DNA of 64,000 nt, from positions 15,624,001 through 15,688,000 of the forward strand of contig NC_043007.1 of the NCBI RefSeq assembly GCF_006345805.1, read 5' to 3'. Positions 12,894 through 63,014 of this stretch are shown here, one piece after another. The stretch's first letter is position 1. Each line of letters opens with the position of its first letter. Origin of the DNA: Octopus sinensis. Its lineage: Eukaryota. The translations under genes and the position numbers were made by a program. The notes beneath the pieces are model-generated. The model saw nothing but the letters and a program-made list of their open reading frames with translations, did no database searches and was not told the origin of the DNA.

Positions 12894-13229
12894 GTATGGG
12901 GGATTAGTTCACAGATAATCTAAACGATTAGGTACGCTAGGTAAGTGGTATAATGGATAACTAGGACTCCAAGGTTATAGCTGCGACTGTATGAGACTGT
13001 GGTTATGGAGCCATTGCAGATTGATTTTCGATGCAGCGGATATTTACTATTTAACAATTATATATATATATATATATATGTAATTGCTTATATATATATA
13101 TATATAATAATAATAAATATTAGGGAATAAATCCAAATTTACAGGGAAAAATCAGATTTAGGATTGAATCCAATTTTATAGTAAAATATTATATAATATT
13201 AATTTAAAATTGAATAGAAGGTCTGAAAA

Positions 13230-13275
13230 CCACCTGATGGATGTCCTTAGAAGTGACAAGAAACAATTGTAGTGG
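13230..13275 (+). ncRNA. Minimal type-I hammerhead ribozyme (one core deviation)
   Basis: CCAC-CTGATGG-A-TGTC(9 nt)GACA-A-GAAA-CAATTG-TA-GTGG; lies in a ~260-bp AT-rich insert (13115-13375) between (TA)n tracts. Confidence 0.7.
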
Positions 13276-13482
13276 ATAACTTAATTTTATTTAATTTATA
13301 TAAAAAATTTTATGTATTGGATTAAGTCTTTCTTTGTTTGATTTGCATAATAGTGGTTTTGTCTCTAATTAATATTATATATATATATAAAAGCAATTAT
13401 GAGGATAAACAAATTACACACGTCAAATATATTAACTATATTAAATATATTAAATGCATGAAAATGTGTATACATATATATA

Positions 13483-14378: not shown

Positions 14379-15574
14379 AAGAGAGACAGAGAGTGCAGAT
14401 GCTACTCGGTGGCATTTGAAACTCTTCCGAAACTAGTACGATGTCAGAAAAAGTTCCGTATCATCAGCTTTTCATTCCGAACCTTGGACGCTTCGCCTGT
14501 TTGCGGTGGCGAGAACTGAAGCTATGTTCGTCTGCTGATGGGTTCCTCTCGCATTTTCTTGTCACCTCCATCCATTTAGGGCTGGTTTCAACTGACATGC
14601 TTATATCCTTGGTGTCTTCTTGCAATCGTCTGAGTTACAGACCAACGTTCTACTGGAAATAGCACACCTTCGAAATTATCTGTTCCGGCCTGTTCCCATT
14701 TGCCTTGCATTTTCTCTCTCCCTCTCTACCTCATCTCTCTCTATCTATTTATTTACATGATACTATGTGTCTTTCCTACTAATGCCTAAGTACAAGCCAA
14801 ACCTAACAGTCAAATACATGCGCATGCAAGGTCTTAAAACAATATTTAAACGAAATTTTAATTTAATCTATTTATGCACAAAACGGCATGTTTATCATGT
14901 ACCGTTAATTGCATTTCCGTCCCAGTGCGCAACACTATAGGCAAGACTATTATATCATAGCCTTAGGTTGACTAATTACCTATGAATGGAATTAGATTGT
15001 CGGAGACAAGCACGCACACGCGCAAATACACACTCACATGCACACACACACACACATACATATAAGTACTGTTGTCCTCGGGATGGTCATTTTATCTATT
15101 ATTATTTTTTTCCCCAAAAAGATGTGTGACGAAAGATTTCCGGACAATAGACAGGCGTCAAGATAAGAAAAATAATAAAATAACAGTAATAAACGAGAGA
15201 AGAAAAAAATAGTGTGGATGTTTCTTTGGCAAAAAACAAACAATAATAATAAATAAATGACCATCTCAAAGTAGAACAATTTCTTTTCAACAATCGATTT
15301 CACATCAAGAATCTGCAAAAAATTGATAAACGTTATATATAATATATATATATATTATATAGTATATATATATATATATATATAGATATATATATATACA
15401 TATATATATATAAACAAAGATAAATGCGATACAATAAAATTAATTATAATCGCCGGTGTACCAGTACACGCCATATATTATACATATCATTACATTCAAG
15501 GCGAAGAGGCCCTAGATACACAATAGCTGGATAAATTAGTGAGATGAAAATTAAAACTTTATAAACTTAACTTT

Positions 15575-15646
15575 TCTTATACTGAAGTTTCGCCAATTCA
15601 GTAATAAAAATAGTATTTATTTACTCAGGCTGGCTCTTCAGTAAGA
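15575..15646 (-). ncRNA. Type-I hammerhead ribozyme
   Basis: Minus strand TCTTA-CTGAAGA-GCCA(long loop)TGGC-GAAA-CTTCAG-TA-TAAGA. Confidence 0.85.
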
Positions 15647-15970
15647 TTCCTGTTAATGATGGGAAGACCATATCAAAGACCCATGTGCGTCTATCGAAAT
15701 GCTCTTTCTAAACTATTCAAAACACTGCGCAGACTCAGAACAAACCCGACAAATAGGGGATGTGGTATATCGTCTAACGGTCAGAAATTTATCGAGAGAT
15801 ATGTAAACAAAGATAATGCGATACATGAAATTATTATAATCGCCGGTGTCAACCAGTACACGCCATATATTATACTATATCATTACATTCAAGGCGAAGA
15901 GTGCACTAGATACACAATAGCTGGATAAATTTAGTGAGATGAAAATTAAAAACTTTTATAACTTAACTTT

Positions 15971-16040
15971 TCTTATACTGCAGTTTCGCCAATTCAGTAT
16001 AAAAATAGTATTTATTTACTCAGGCTGGCTCTTCATAAGA
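15971..16040 (-). ncRNA. Type-I hammerhead ribozyme, second tandem copy (C3 missing in this assembly)
   Basis: TCTTA-TGAAGA-GCCA...TGGC-GAAA-CTGCAG-TA-TAAGA; stem III is the perfect palindrome ACTGCAGT. Confidence 0.7.
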
Positions 16041-16139
16041 TTCCTGTTAATGAAGGGAAGACCATATATATATATTATATATATATATATATTAATATAT
16101 ATAATATAATATAATAATATACATATATCTATATATACA

Positions 16140-16181
<42 letters not shown>

Positions 16182-16205
16182 CCACACACACACACACAAC
16201 ACACA

Positions 16206-16239
<34 letters not shown>

Positions 16240-16269
16240 TTATATATATAGTGAAAGTACATCACATTA

Positions 16270-17175: not shown

Positions 17176-17494
17176 ATCGCTCACTACTAAATGTGTGGTA
17201 TCTTTTATAATGCATCTTATGATATATAGGTTAGAGAAAGAAGGCGGATATGAGAGTTCGATTGTATTGATCGTAATACAGAGTGATATATCAGTGGAAT
17301 CGGATTAGCATGGATGTTAAGCAACACACACACACACCACACACACACACACACACAAGCACACCGATAGATAAAGGTATAATAGAGGACTTTTGAATAG
17401 ATCTCTTCAGATTGTTACCCTGCAACCAGGTGTTTTTTACCATTTAGCATTCTACAGAGATAACAGCATTCTTCCGTCATTACTCTTTGTTGCG

Positions 17495-19085
17495 AAGGCG
17501 GCGAGCTGGCAGAGACGTTAGCTCGTCGGGCGTAATGCTTAGCAGTATTTCGCCTGCCGTTATGTTCTGAGTTCAAATTCCGCCGAGGTCGACTTTGCCT
17601 TTCATCCTTCCGGGGTCGATTAAATAAGTACCAGTTACGCACCGGAGCAACATGAAATAAAGTATCTTGGGGTCGATGTAATCGACTTAATCCGTTTGTA
17701 TGTCCTTGTTTGTCCTCTCTGTGTTTAGCCCCTTGTGGGTAGTAAAGAAATAGGTATTTCGTCTGCCGTTACGTTCTGAGTTCAAATTCCGCCGAGGTCG
17801 ACTTTGCCTTTCATCCTTTGGGGGTCGATTAAATAAGTACCAGTTAATCGACTTAATCCGATTAGTAAAGAAATAGGTATTTCGTCTGCCGTTACGTTCT
17901 GAGTTCAAATTCCACCGAGGTCGACTCTGAGGTTGACTTTGCCTTTCATCCTTTCGAGGTCGATAAATTAAGTACCAGTTACGCACTGGGGTCGATGTAA
18001 TCGACTTAATCCGTTTGTCTGTCCTTGTTTGTCCTCTCTGTGTTTAGCCTCTTGTGGGTAGCAAAGAAATAGGTATTTCGTCTGTCTTTACGTTCTGAGT
18101 TCAAATTCTGCTGAGGTCGACTTTGCTTTTCATCCTTTCGGGTTCGATAAATTAAGTACCAGTTACGTACTGGGGTCGATGTAATCGATTTAATCCCTTT
18201 GTCTGTTCTTCTTTGTCCCCTCTATGTTTAGTCACTTGTGGGCAATAAAGAAATAAGTAACCTTAGCACGCCGGGCGAAATGCTTAGCGGTATTTCGTCT
18301 GTCTTTAAATTCTGAGTTCAAATTACGCCGAGTTCGACTTTACCTTTCATCCTTTTGGGGTCGATAAATTAAGTACCAGTTACGTACTGATTTCGATCTC
18401 ATCCAATGCACCCCCACCCCACCCCAAAAAAAATTGTGCCTAGAGTAGAAAATTATTCTTTGATGTGAGGTGGCAAGCTGGCAGCATCGTTAGCACGCCG
18501 GGCAAATTACGGAGTGGCATTTTGTCCGTCTTTATGTTTTAGTTCATATTCCGCCGATATCGACTTTGCCTTTCATCCTTTTGAAGTCGATAGAATAAGT
18601 ACCAGCTGATCACTGGGGTCGATAAAATCGATTTATCCATCTCTCCCGAAATTGCTGGCCTTGTGCCAAAATTTGAAACCAATATGACAGTGATCTAAGG
18701 CGGCGAGCTGGCAGAAACGTTAGCACGCCGGGCGAAATGCTTAGCGGTTTTTCGTCTGCCGCTACGTTCTGAGTTCGAATTCTGCCGAGGTCGACTTTGC
18801 CTTTCATCCTTTCGGAGTCGATAAATCAAGGACCAGTTAACAGGCACTGGGGTCAATGTACTCGACTTAATTCCTCTGTCTGTCCTTGTTTGTCGTCTCA
18901 TGCAAAATACTTAACGGCATTTCGTCCGTTTTTATGTTCTGAGTTCAAATTCAGCCGAGGGCGATTTTGCCTTTCATCCTTTCTGAACCGCCGAAATAAG
19001 TACCAATTGAGGAATGTTGAAATCAGTAATCGGCGTACACGCGCCCCTGAAATTGCCGGCCTTATACCAAAATTTGAAATCAATA
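17495..19085 (+). mobile_element. Tandem array of family-B SINE units (about 9 units)
   Basis: Heads at 17495, ~18470 and 18697; repeated GTATTTCGTCTG...GAGTTCAAATTCCGCCGAGGTCGACTTTGCCTTTCATCC units, all in the same orientation. Confidence 0.9.
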
Positions 19086-23330: not shown

Positions 23331-23677
23331 TAGATAAGAAAGTTTGTTTGGTAAAGCACGTGGGTGAATATATAAGAAAATAGTAAAGTGTGAAAAAACG
23401 ACTCCAGACATTTTGACACAAATATATATATTTTTTAACATTTAAGCCTTCTGTCGTTTTTTCACACTTTACTATTTTCTTATATATATATATATATATA
23501 TATATATCTTTTATTCTTTTACTTGTTTCAGTCATTTGACTGCGGCCATGGTGGAGCACCACCTTTGCTCGAAGAAATCGCCCCCAGGATTTATTGTTTG
23601 TAAACCTATCACTCATTCCATCGGTCTTTTTTGAAGAGGACGTAAACATAACCAACATATATTTATATATTATATAT

Positions 23678-23716
<39 letters not shown>

Positions 23717-23726
23717 TATTATATAC

Positions 23727-23781
<55 letters not shown>

Positions 23782-39366: not shown

Positions 39367-39783
39367 TATTTCTTTATTGCCCACAATGGGCTAAACATAG
39401 GGGGGACAAACAAGGACAGACGAAGGGATTAAGTCGATTACATCGACCCCAGTACGTAACCGGTGTTTAATTTATCGACCCCGAAAGGATGAAAGGCAAA
39501 GTCGACCTCGGTGGAATTTGAACTCAGCACGTAGCGGCAGACGAAATACTTATTTCTTTACTACCAACAAGGGGCCAAACACAGAGAGGACAAACAAGGA
39601 CAGACAAACGTATTAAGTCGATTATATCGAGCCCAGTGCGTAACAGGTACTTATTTAATCGACCCCGAAAGGAAGAAAGGCAAAGTCGACCTCGGCGGAA
39701 TTTGAACTCAGAACGTAGCAGCGGACAAAATACTGCTAAGCATTTCGCCCGGCGTGCTAACGTTTCTGCCAGCTCGCCGCCTT
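39367..39783 (-). mobile_element. Family-B SINE, two-unit form, with 18-bp TSD
   Basis: TSD GTACTCACCTAAGTTTCA at 39349-39366 and 39786-39803. Confidence 0.92.
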
Positions 39784-54648: not shown

Positions 54649-55220
54649 AAGGCGGCGAGCTGGCAGAGACTTTAGCACGCCGGGCGAAATACTTAGCAGT
54701 GTTTCGTCTGCCGCTACGTTCTGAGTTCAAATTCAGCCGAGGTCGACTTTGCCTTTCATCCTTTCAGGGTCGATTAAATAAGTACCAGTTAAGCACTGGG
54801 GTCGATATAATCGACTTAATCCGTTTGTCTGTCCTTGTTTGTGCCCTCTGTGTTTAGCCCCTTGTGGGTAGTAAAGAAATAGGTATTTCGTCTGCCGCTA
54901 CGTTCTGAGTTCAAATTCCGCCGAGGTCGACTTTGCCATTCATCCTTTCAGGGTCGATTAAATAAGTACCAGTTATGCACTGGGGTCGATATAATCGACT
55001 TAATCCGTTTGTCTGTCCTTGTTTGCCCCCTCTGTTTGTAGCCCCTTGTGGGTAATAAAGAAATAAGCATTTCGTCCGCCTTTAATGCTCTGAGTTCAAA
55101 TTCCGCCGAGAACATCGACTTTGTCTTTCATTCTTTTGGGATTGATAAAATAATTACCAGTTGAGCATTGGAGTCGATACAACCCATTTATCCCTCTCCA
55201 GCAAAATTGCTGGCCTTGTG
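54649..55220 (+). mobile_element. Family-B SINE, three units
   Basis: Head, two young units and one older unit ending GGCCTTGTGCCAAAA.TTGAAACC. Confidence 0.9.
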
Positions 55221-57625: not shown

Positions 57626-58304
57626 CTGTGATCGGACTGCGGCTTTGCTGGAGCATCGCATGGAAAGGCTTAGTAATCGCACTGCGGCTTTGCTGGAGCA
57701 TCGCATGGAAATGTTTAGTGATCGCACTGCGGCTTTGCTGGAGCATCGCATGGAAAGGTTTAGTGATCGCTCTGCGGCTTTGCTGGAGCATCGCATGGAA
57801 AGGTTTAGTGATCAGACTGCGGCTTTGCTTTAGCATCGCATGGAAAGGTTTAGTGATCGGACTGCGGCTTTGCTGGAGCATCGCCTGGAAAGGTTTAGCG
57901 ATCGCACTGCGGCTTGGCTGGAGCATCGCATGGAAAGGTTTAGCGATCGGACTGCGGCTTGGCTGGAGCATCGCATGGAAAGGTTTAGTGATCGCACTGC
58001 GGCTTTGCTGGAGCATCGCATGGAAAGGTTTAGCGATCGCACTGCGGCTTGGCTGGAGCATCGCATGGAAAGGTTTAGTGATCGCACTGCGGCTTTGCTG
58101 GAGCATCGCATGGAAAGGTTTAGCGATCGCACTGCGGCTTGGCTGGAGCATCGCATGGAAAGGTTTAGTGATCGGACTGCGGCTTTGCTGGAGCATCGCA
58201 TGGAAAGGTTTAGTGATCGCACTGCGGCTTTGCTGGAGCATCGCATGGAAAGGTTTAGCGATCGCTCTGCGGCTTTGCTGGAGCATCGCATGGAAAGGTT
58301 TAGT
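57626..58304. repeat. 45-bp minisatellite (about 15 copies) inside an old family-C SINE
   Basis: Unit TGATCGCACTGCGGCTTTGCTGGAGCATCGCATGGAAAGGTTTAG; flanks continue as the antisense family-C tail to ~58440. Confidence 0.93.
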
Positions 58305-60114: not shown

Positions 60115-60925
60115 AAGTCAGCGAACTGTTACCAGAAACGTTAGCATGGCGGGCGAAATGCTTTGCGGTATTTCATATGCAGTTACGTTCTGAGTTCAAA
60201 TTTCGCCGAGGTCGACTTTGCCTTTCATCCTTTCGGAGTCGATTAAATAAGTACCAGTTACGCACTGGGGTCGATATAATCGACTTAATCCGTTTGTCTG
60301 TCCTTGTTTCTCCTCTCTGTGTGTAGCCCCTTGTGGGTAGTAAAGAAATAGGTATTTCATCTGCCACTACGTTCTGAGTTCAAATTCCGCCGAGGTCGAC
60401 TTTGCCTTTCATCCTTTCGGGGTCGATTAAATAAGTACCAGTTACGCACTGGGGTCGATATAATCGACTTAATCCGTTTGTCTGTCTTTGCTTGTCCTCT
60501 TTGTGTTTATTTCCTTGTGAGTAGCAAAGAAATAGGTATTTCGTCTGTTTTTACGTCTGAGTTCAAATTCTGTCGAGGTTGACTTTGCCTTTCATCATTT
60601 GGGGGTCGATAAATTAAGTACCAGTTGCGTACCGGAGGCGACATAATCGACTGCCCCGCCCTCTTCCAAAATTTCAGGCCTTATGCCTAGAGTAGAAAAG
60701 AATATTTGCCGGAGATTTAAGTCAGCGAGCTTACAGAATCGTTAGCACGTCGGGTGAAATGCCAAGCTGCATTCCACCCTTCTTTACGTTCAAAATCTGC
60801 CGAGGTCAACTTTGCCTTTTATCCTTTCGGACTCGACAAGATACGTACCACTGAAGAACTGGGGTCGAAGCAACCGTCTTATCCCATCCCCCCAAATTCC
60901 TAGCCTCATTCCAAAATTTGAACAC
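60115..60925 (+). mobile_element. Family-B SINE tandem cluster
   Basis: Three units to ~60700 plus an older monomer at 60720-60925. Confidence 0.88.
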
Positions 60926-62475: not shown

Positions 62476-63014
62476 CGTTTACAGCACCTAGGTTTCCCAG
62501 GCGGTCACCCATCTAAGTACTAATTTGGCTCGACTTTGCTTAACCTCGGTGATCAGACGAGAACCGGGGATCTTTTGGTTTGAACGGCAGTTTTTAACGT
62601 AATTTCTAGGTAACTAAAAAATTTTAAATTTCGTATACTGGTAGAATGTGTTTATAAAACATCTTTTTTCTCTTGGCTTTATTGAGAAAATTCTATAGTT
62701 TGTAAGGTATTTGTTGTTGTTTTTTTCTTCAATTTCTGCAAGTTCAACAATCAGTGACGTGTATTCTGTGCCGTATGAATATGTCCCTCGTTTAAGAAAC
62801 AGATTTGGTCTATTTACATTTGTGAAGAAAAAAAAGATACCCTTCCCCCACCCCTGACCCTAACTCTAACCGTAACTAACCCTAACCCGAAAATAGATTG
62901 AAATGCAATTGATCGATTCTAGGGTCATAATTATGGGTGACACCGCTAGAAAAACCTGCTGTTCAAACCGAAAAGATCCAGAACCGGTACTTTCAACGTG
63001 ATATGGCCGTAAGT
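62476..63014 (-). pseudogene. 5S rRNA pseudogene interrupted by a MITE
   Basis: Removing 62568-62987 gives ACTTACGGCCATATCACGTTGAAAGTACCGGTTCTCGTCTGATCACCGAGGTTAAGCAAAGTCGAGCCAAATTAGTACTTAGATGGGTGACCGCCTGGGAAACCTAGGTGCTGTAAAC, a metazoan 5S-like sequence. Confidence 0.92.
62568..62979 (-). mobile_element. GGATC-ended MITE with perfect 8-bp TSD
   Basis: TSD AGAACCGG at 62560-62567 and 62980-62987. Confidence 0.93.

Follow-up and report, generated by a model that had tools for sequence, protein, structure and literature searches.

A dispersed 404-nt tandem repeat with a type I hammerhead and retrozyme-like features in Octopus sinensis

A 64,000-nt stretch of Octopus sinensis NC_043007.1 (hereafter the window, in whose numbering the coordinates of the locus are given) carries on its minus strand, arranged head to tail, 0.66 plus 1 unit of a repeat that is 404 nt long, dispersed, and contains a type I hammerhead. 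The family to which this locus belongs has been dispersed by retrotransposition, and we assign it with high confidence to the metazoan non-LTR retrozymes, among which it represents an apparently new family. No description of the 404-nt family or of any cephalopod retrozyme was found in the openly accessible article texts searched.

The locus and its two hammerheads

A preliminary description of this DNA proposed two direct repeats, each with a minus-strand hammerhead, flanked by (TA)n and lacking a real ORF. The repeats are present (15413-15673 versus 15806-16067; 257 identities, 5 mismatches, 13 gap columns, E = 7e-106), as are both hammerheads, of which the upstream one lacks C3. The predicted cut sites, 15580 and 15976, lie 396 nt apart, (TA)n occurs on both sides (15334-15412 and 16064-16250), and ATG frames in the family unit, taken as a circle, reach at most 59 aa in the sense and 79 aa in the antisense direction. 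The locus consists of family positions 137-404 followed by 1-404 (1.66 units; 262 nt plus 393 nt). An arrangement of two terminal repeats (LTRs) around a spacer was rejected, as the "spacer" (15672-15805) is the first third of the 404-nt unit. The features of the locus are as follows.

15334..15412, no strand: (TA)n target tract, 3' side; the 3' flank is TA-rich in 73 of 75 family loci
15413..15805, minus strand: full unit, family positions 1-404, 393 nt, 96.3% identical to the reference unit (L005:1501-1904), ending at the fixed 3' end
15575..15646, minus strand: type I hammerhead, downstream copy, with an intact core, a long interrupted stem II, and a private G>T in the stem III palindrome
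15626..15652, minus strand: putative loop-loop pairing between the stem I-adjacent CAGG (15652-15649) and the CCUG (15629-15626) of the stem II internal loop
15799..15812, minus strand: head-to-tail unit junction; 7 of 75 loci extend past the 3' end into TACA of the next unit
15806..16067, minus strand: 5'-truncated upstream unit, family positions 137-404, 95.2% identical to the same reference unit
15971..16040, minus strand: type I hammerhead, upstream copy, with C3 missing between 16036 and 16035 and a perfect stem III palindrome
16064..16250, no strand: (TA)n tract, 5' side; the 5' flank is TA-rich in 54 of 75 family loci

The downstream hammerhead was the only match of a type I scan covering both strands of the 64-kb window. 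Its stem I comprises 5 bp (15646-15642 with 15579-15575), its core consists of CUGAAGA (15641-15635) and GAAA (15591-15588), its 4-bp stem II continues through an internal loop into an outer stem of 9 bp, and its stem III has two pairs closed by a four-base loop. Cleavage is predicted after GUA at 15580 and, in the upstream copy, after 15976. The Rfam hammerhead models gave no match at gathering level in the window, and none when two reference units were searched at E values as high as 10; the long stem II is the probable cause.

The preliminary description also regarded stem III as self-complementary, such that the two copies could pair. This applies to ACTGCAGT but not to ACTTCAGT, which occurs at this locus only (1 of 52 units) and weakens the computed inter-copy stem III duplex from -11.1 to -4.4 kcal/mol. 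The loss of C3 is likewise confined to 1 of the 52 units examined; the full core and stems were matched in 48 of 52, the upstream unit of this locus being an exception. In addition, both units of the locus share two private changes (family positions 214 and 249), as expected from a single template.

The anticipated product of about 396 nt was not borne out, since the family unit is 404 nt and this locus is short through scattered one-base deletions. Compared with the reference over 672 positions, it has 19 deleted and 2 inserted bases and 6 substitutions, and with 3.1 indel columns per 100 nt it ranks fourth from the top among 75 loci, of which 25 are free of indels. Deletions outnumber insertions family-wide (527 versus 141). 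The deletions at this locus look like unpolished long-read assembly error, an interpretation that we consider probable; at the indel rate of the locus, the chance that at least one of 22 core bases is struck is 47%. Position 16035 is covered by short-read contigs of sister families only.

Hammerhead geometry implies that, without C3, one of the two cuts would fail in either monomer or dimer mode, and a C3G change is reported to abolish cleavage in a Penelope hammerhead (PMC11167929). As assembled, the locus thus presumably could not release a unit-length RNA, because its modeled inter-copy pairing is 0.0 and one cut relies on the core without C3. It would act as a source of RNA, as first suggested, only if the deletions are assembly errors. 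The locus is one of the worst-preserved copies of the family.

The surroundings are rich in repeats. No host exon was recognized among 17 long frames between 5 and 30 kb of the window, all of which appeared repeat derived by eye. A worn copy (~82%) of a second (TA)n-inserted hammerhead repeat lies in an inverted arrangement at 13090-13390, with the near-core CTGATGG...GAAACAATTGTAGTGG on the plus strand (~13231-13275), and a further fragment lies at 23653-23778; this second repeat has at least 204 candidates in the genome, and its 5' copies are often inverted. The window also contains a 5S rRNA gene or pseudogene (62479-62589, minus strand; 50.7 bits), a 184-bp interspersed repeat in short tandem arrays (17459-19000, 39367-39734, 54702-55179, and 60167-60652), and a 45-bp minisatellite repeated 15 times (57628-58304).

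Genomic copies, insertion ends, and ribozyme conservation

A search of the genome (2.72 Gb) with 15415-15805 returned 647 candidates, and the best 40 of these gave at least 113 matches, which form head-to-tail arrays of the 404-nt unit. The preliminary description had allowed that other copies might never occur in tandem; arrays of up to nine full units were found elsewhere in the genome. Copies are located on many chromosomes and are mostly <3% diverged. The retrozyme-like identity suggested earlier is supported by these family-wide features: the unit is noncoding, 404 nt long, 34% GC, and without an LTR-flanked layout, and it occurs as 1 to 10 pieces per locus (75 loci). Exact-pattern counts gave 249 motifs in which N7 is not T (100 of them individually listed) and 51 in which N7 is T, of which 49 are family members. 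There are thus approximately 298 intact family ribozyme motifs genome-wide (249 plus 49) versus 0 for reversed patterns, which excludes a chance origin of the motifs.

Short-read contigs of 404, 425, and 434 nt from three studies span the unit junction and are identical to the reference array L005, and a sequencing run of another organism contains a head-to-tail joint going back 397 nt. Since these come from independent runs, the 404-nt unit and its tandem form are not artifacts of assembly. The contigs give no strand, ends, or level of RNA, and the longest one (one unit plus 30 nt) would look alike whether derived from a circle or from a genomic tandem. None of the runs recorded as containing the sequence is listed as RNA, which counts neither for nor against expression, since the RNA labels themselves are guesses.

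Insertion ends were mapped at 75 distinct loci, for which overlapping fetches were merged, the chimeric L177 was excluded, and only the last block of L176 was used. A common 3' end (family position 398-404) was found in 73 of them, and in 7 the sequence runs on beyond it into TACA, the initial four bases of the following unit; TA-rich sequence is more frequent in the 3' flank (73 loci) than in the 5' flank (54 loci), and (TA)n at both ends of the insertions hides any target-site duplication. The 5' ends range from position 8 to 370, compatible with a uniform spread (Kolmogorov-Smirnov P = 0.21). Target-primed reverse transcription characteristically leaves such a pattern, in which the 3' end is fixed and the 5' ends are ragged. 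Insertion lengths range from 109 to 3,652 nt; their distribution is biased, as loci were chosen for having the best match or an intact motif.

The fixed genomic 3' end sits 173 nt downstream of the cut site. Because the RNA extends beyond this end, which does not coincide with the cut site, the start of reverse transcription is internal. At least one cut site is crossed in 72 of the 75 loci, two in 45, three in 27, and five in 11; the template was therefore unbroken at the cut site in these 72 insertions, being either a circle or an uncut multimer. Jumps between linear monomers would pile up 5' ends at the cut site; no such excess was observed (2 ends within 5 nt versus 2.0 expected), although L159 and L183 could start there.

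Several loci have unusual structures. The nine-unit array L108 (G000:C7:75.73 Mb) contains a four-unit (1,620-nt) higher-order repeat in which small indels are repeated too, and which reflects either a later duplication or an assembly duplication. L100, L119, L156, L158, and L166 have short duplicates of the element 5' end with TA bases between, which suggests aborted and restarted 5' joining. L177 contains a 1.68-kb near-perfect palindrome (L177:1765-3445; G000:C3:162.24 Mb) whose arms combine family positions 97-240, 555 nt unique among the loci compared, and the second hammerhead repeat's 3' end. It may have arisen by template switching plus inversion and, as a single case, hints at machinery shared with the second repeat.

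Two sister families, B and C, form tandems of about 400 nt (398-402 nt) that are 84% and 83% identical to the present family (A) and share its 3' end and targets (L221-L250); a 21-mer used to trace them had 129 exact matches, the control having 0. All 35 positions of the core (11), stem I (10), stem III (6), and the putative loop-loop pairing (8) are identical in A, B, and C, versus 252 of 327 positions outside the ribozyme. Within family A, none of the 32 recurrent substitutions falls in the core except at N7 and H17, which are free positions. Among 18 aligned variants, 95.7% of cells are paired versus 34 to 48% for slid structures, with double changes at two stem II pairs; a shuffle control on these variants was inflated by relatedness. 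These sequence patterns suggest that the ribozyme is under selection in the family, which we count in support of the explanation preferred below. In family C, the base of stem II contains an A.C mismatch.

The complementary CAGG and CCUG segments are invariant in all 18 variants, and family C alone adds a fifth pair, also G-C. No double change occurs within the four pairs, and the evidence is thus one of conservation, not covariation; it suggests a pseudoknot of the kind described in PMC3088659. By eye, such a pairing was not evident in a 503-nt family with a similar extended stem II. This 503-nt tandem family and another of roughly 350 to 400 nt with a compact stem II belong to a set of 602 additional type I motifs that share the stem III word (4 in the control; L251-L290); both are mostly in (TA)n, often with inverted copies. 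A lone related hammerhead of type I, whose stem II is long and stem III palindromic, lies in a duplicated segment (L153 and L154; G000:C6:110.06 and 110.23 Mb) with neither tandem nor ORF.

In the modeled monomer circle, stem II forms with a probability of 0.93 to 0.95 and stem III with 0.0, and in the best fold the start of the core (C3-U4-G5) is paired away with stem III. In two-unit RNAs, inter-copy stem III reaches 0.56 to 0.60 in the natural L005 dimer and 0.69 to 0.75 otherwise, and intra-copy stem III is 0.0. The dimeric hammerhead suggested for this locus is hence predicted for the family (0.56 to 0.75) but not for the locus as assembled (0.0). The swapped stems I of a full double hammerhead were not predicted (probability <0.01), and the circular unit folded no better than shuffles (z = -0.9). 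A switch that is on in the dimer and off in the monomer is plausible in these models and accords with PMC4209133 and with axolotl data in PMC7229834, as far as the available parts of these papers show.

Candidate mechanisms of amplification

Haplotypes were compared across 61 multi-unit loci after substitutions within 4 nt of an indel were dropped. Of 242 calls of variants shared between loci, 217 were present in all covering units, 3 in a subset, and 22 in one unit; among locus-private variants, 9 were fixed in all units, 16 were shared by a subset, and 95 were single. Full units were on average 2.96 substitutions apart within arrays (159 pairs) versus 7.70 between arrays (4,306 pairs). Several nested sub-haplotypes each own arrays of five to nine units. 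Such pure nested sub-haplotypes with long arrays point to repeated one-unit bottlenecks and re-expansions, both of which are given directly by laps around a circle. Some of the 16 subset-shared private variants show a period of 2 or 4 (L017, L107, and L108), which is impossible from a monomer circle; such a circle is thus not the sole process, and local duplication, multimer templates, or assembly duplication also act.

For the present locus, we favor, with some confidence, an explanation in which a Penelope-like enzyme nicked (TA)n and, beginning at a fixed internal point, reverse-transcribed an RNA of unit length that was probably circular, leaving the 1.66-unit insertion. Multi-unit loci would be transcribed, with six runs of at least four T's arguing against polymerase III. 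Neighboring hammerheads are predicted to pair via an 8-nt palindrome and to cut after GUA, yielding a 404-nt monomer that a host ligase would close into a circle; cleavage and circularization are reported for coral, mussel, and axolotl elements (PMC7229834). In the folding models, this circle would be stable, as stem III is not formed and C3-U4-G5 is paired away. The TA-like bases immediately beyond the 3' end might anneal to (TA)n at the nick. Reverse transcription by the putative enzyme would begin at the fixed 3' end, 173 nt downstream of the cut site, pass the cut/ligation site of the circle, and stop at random after 0.3 to 9 laps, in this case after 1.66.

More tentatively, the family as a whole could be a record of rolling-circle target-primed reverse transcription, combining a dimer-gated hammerhead with a loop contact, a stable 404-nt circle, priming by TA pairing, and up to nine laps. 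A rolling-circle step has been proposed for animal retrozymes, and no demonstration of it was found in the parts of the retrozyme literature available to us. Counted against the preferred explanation, eight of nine Xenopus dimer elements were uncleaved in vitro (bioRxiv 10.64898/2026.07.22.740005).

The involvement of a Penelope-like element (PLE) is suggested by the PLE-type insertion anatomy of the family together with co-occurring intact PLEs that have the same (TA)n target; the family itself is likely a nonautonomous derivative of such elements. The genome has 5,029 GIY-YIG candidates; the best 150 were scored and include intact reverse transcriptase (RT) plus GIY-YIG ORFs of 775 to 781 aa with a Cys linker, ending in (TA)n. 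We take these ORFs to be Neptune-like on the basis of the linker described in PMC8557442 rather than of a tree. No sequence shared with the unit beyond AT-rich words was found in 30 plus 12 GIY-YIG loci (among the best 150 of 5,029), no autonomous partner was found in 40 other hammerhead loci (10 of the second repeat and 30 with the stem III word), and the unit and family loci lack an RT plus GIY-YIG ORF. A young PLE family of 781 aa (L061:174-1613 and L069) has a separate upstream frame of 479 aa, which is unusual for single-ORF PLEs.

According to PMC11167929, the Penelope enzyme cleaves AT-rich DNA and initiates within its RNA; the start site has no homology to the DNA that is cut, and hammerhead cleavage is not needed. 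A microsatellite bias is reported for PLEs (PMC8557442). The former study supports the enzyme class, weakens the idea of priming by pairing, and lends weight to a second explanation that retains the element and the Penelope-type enzyme but takes as template an uncleaved linear multi-unit transcript, with the ribozyme trimming transcripts or acting late. We regard this explanation as less likely than the preferred one, though as a serious rival. In it, insertions of 1.x units give the bottleneck and long arrays grow later by local duplication. The internal start, the normal insertion of hammerhead mutants, and the reported lack of RNA sequencing reads ending at the cut site (PMC11167929) agree with it, as do the partial tandems that are the normal PLE layout (PMC8557442) and the subset-shared private variants in eight arrays, which show some local duplication or multimer copying. 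However, 27 of the 75 sampled loci cross at least three cut sites although copies are mostly <3% diverged, mosaics account for only 3 of the 242 calls of inherited variants, and every young sub-haplotype would have to have expanded independently many times.

It is improbable that the unit is instead a detached pseudo-LTR of an unsampled autonomous PLE whose 5'-truncated by-products are the copies seen here. Such an origin has precedent in Xenopus, where 24 of 57 retrozyme families match transposable elements, mostly PLE ends (bioRxiv 10.64898/2026.07.22.740005), and the GIY-YIG loci scored were the best 150 of 5,029. However, the unit is not continued upstream by an ORF at any of the 75 loci, what lies before position 1 is always either position 404 or flanking sequence, and the 3'-terminal 90 nt yields 618 candidates versus 647 for the whole unit. 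Finally, an assembly duplication at this error-rich locus (3.1 indel columns per 100 nt), or a passive minisatellite with a chance hammerhead, is highly improbable and for the family largely refuted, given the same architecture at dozens of loci, the independent short-read contigs and the run of another organism that cross the unit junction, and a core conserved across families 16 to 17% apart.

Relation to known elements

The family most resembles the metazoan non-LTR retrozymes of PMC7229834 (coral, Mytilus mussel at 350 to 390 bp, and axolotl at 330/350 bp), with which it shares, in the available account, noncoding tandem units of a few hundred bases, a GC content below 50%, a type I hammerhead with a short palindromic stem III, the absence of an LTR-type layout, and coexisting PLEs. 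At 404 nt, it lies at the upper end of their unit size, and it differs in that, where they have a small terminal loop, its stem II has an internal loop followed by a long outer stem; strict (TA)n targeting, the fixed 3' end, and random 5' truncation were mapped here. With the animal retrozymes treated as nonautonomous PLE derivatives by Li, Clavereau and Pollet (2026; bioRxiv 10.64898/2026.07.22.740005), it shares monomer, dimer, and multimer copies and co-occurrence with PLEs. Unlike those, it had no matching pseudo-LTR in the loci compared. In the available parts of that study, which sampled 31 vertebrates, three insects, and one anthozoan, most families have up to about seven units and local satellite-like amplification is favored; by its rule of two consecutive complete hammerheads, the present locus as assembled is not "active."

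Partial tandems, a fixed 3' end, 5' truncation, microsatellite or AT-rich targets, an internal start of reverse transcription, and a hammerhead in the repeat are shared with EN+ PLEs, as portrayed in the available parts of PMC8557442 (Neptune/Nematis-type linker) and PMC11167929 (Poseidon PAc). The 404-nt family differs from them in having no ORF, a canonical rather than minimal hammerhead, a 3' extension of 4 nt instead of a 30- to 40-bp tail, and no inverted 5' copy in 75 loci (the chimeric palindrome L177 set aside). Without an RT plus GIY-YIG ORF, it is not an autonomous PLE, and its type I topology and tandem units rule out a plant LTR retrozyme, which has a type III hammerhead in two LTRs. 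About 40% of the hammerheads in PMC3088659, across all three types, are predicted to have stems I and II joined by base pairs; relative to the pseudoknot-stabilized examples available there, the contact suggested here would connect stem I's flank or loop to the internal loop of an extended stem II and is based on conservation.

The class of element is already known, and the value of the family lies in its youth, its clean insertion ends, and its pure haplotypes within arrays. It could decide between a circular template, as proposed in PMC7229834, and an uncut linear RNA, in line with the in vitro preference of Penelope in the available account of PMC11167929. It would also offer a natural hammerhead predicted to be on in the dimer and off in the monomer. 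Finally, it provides a (TA)n-targeting template whose enzyme can be sought among several intact PLE families of the same genome.
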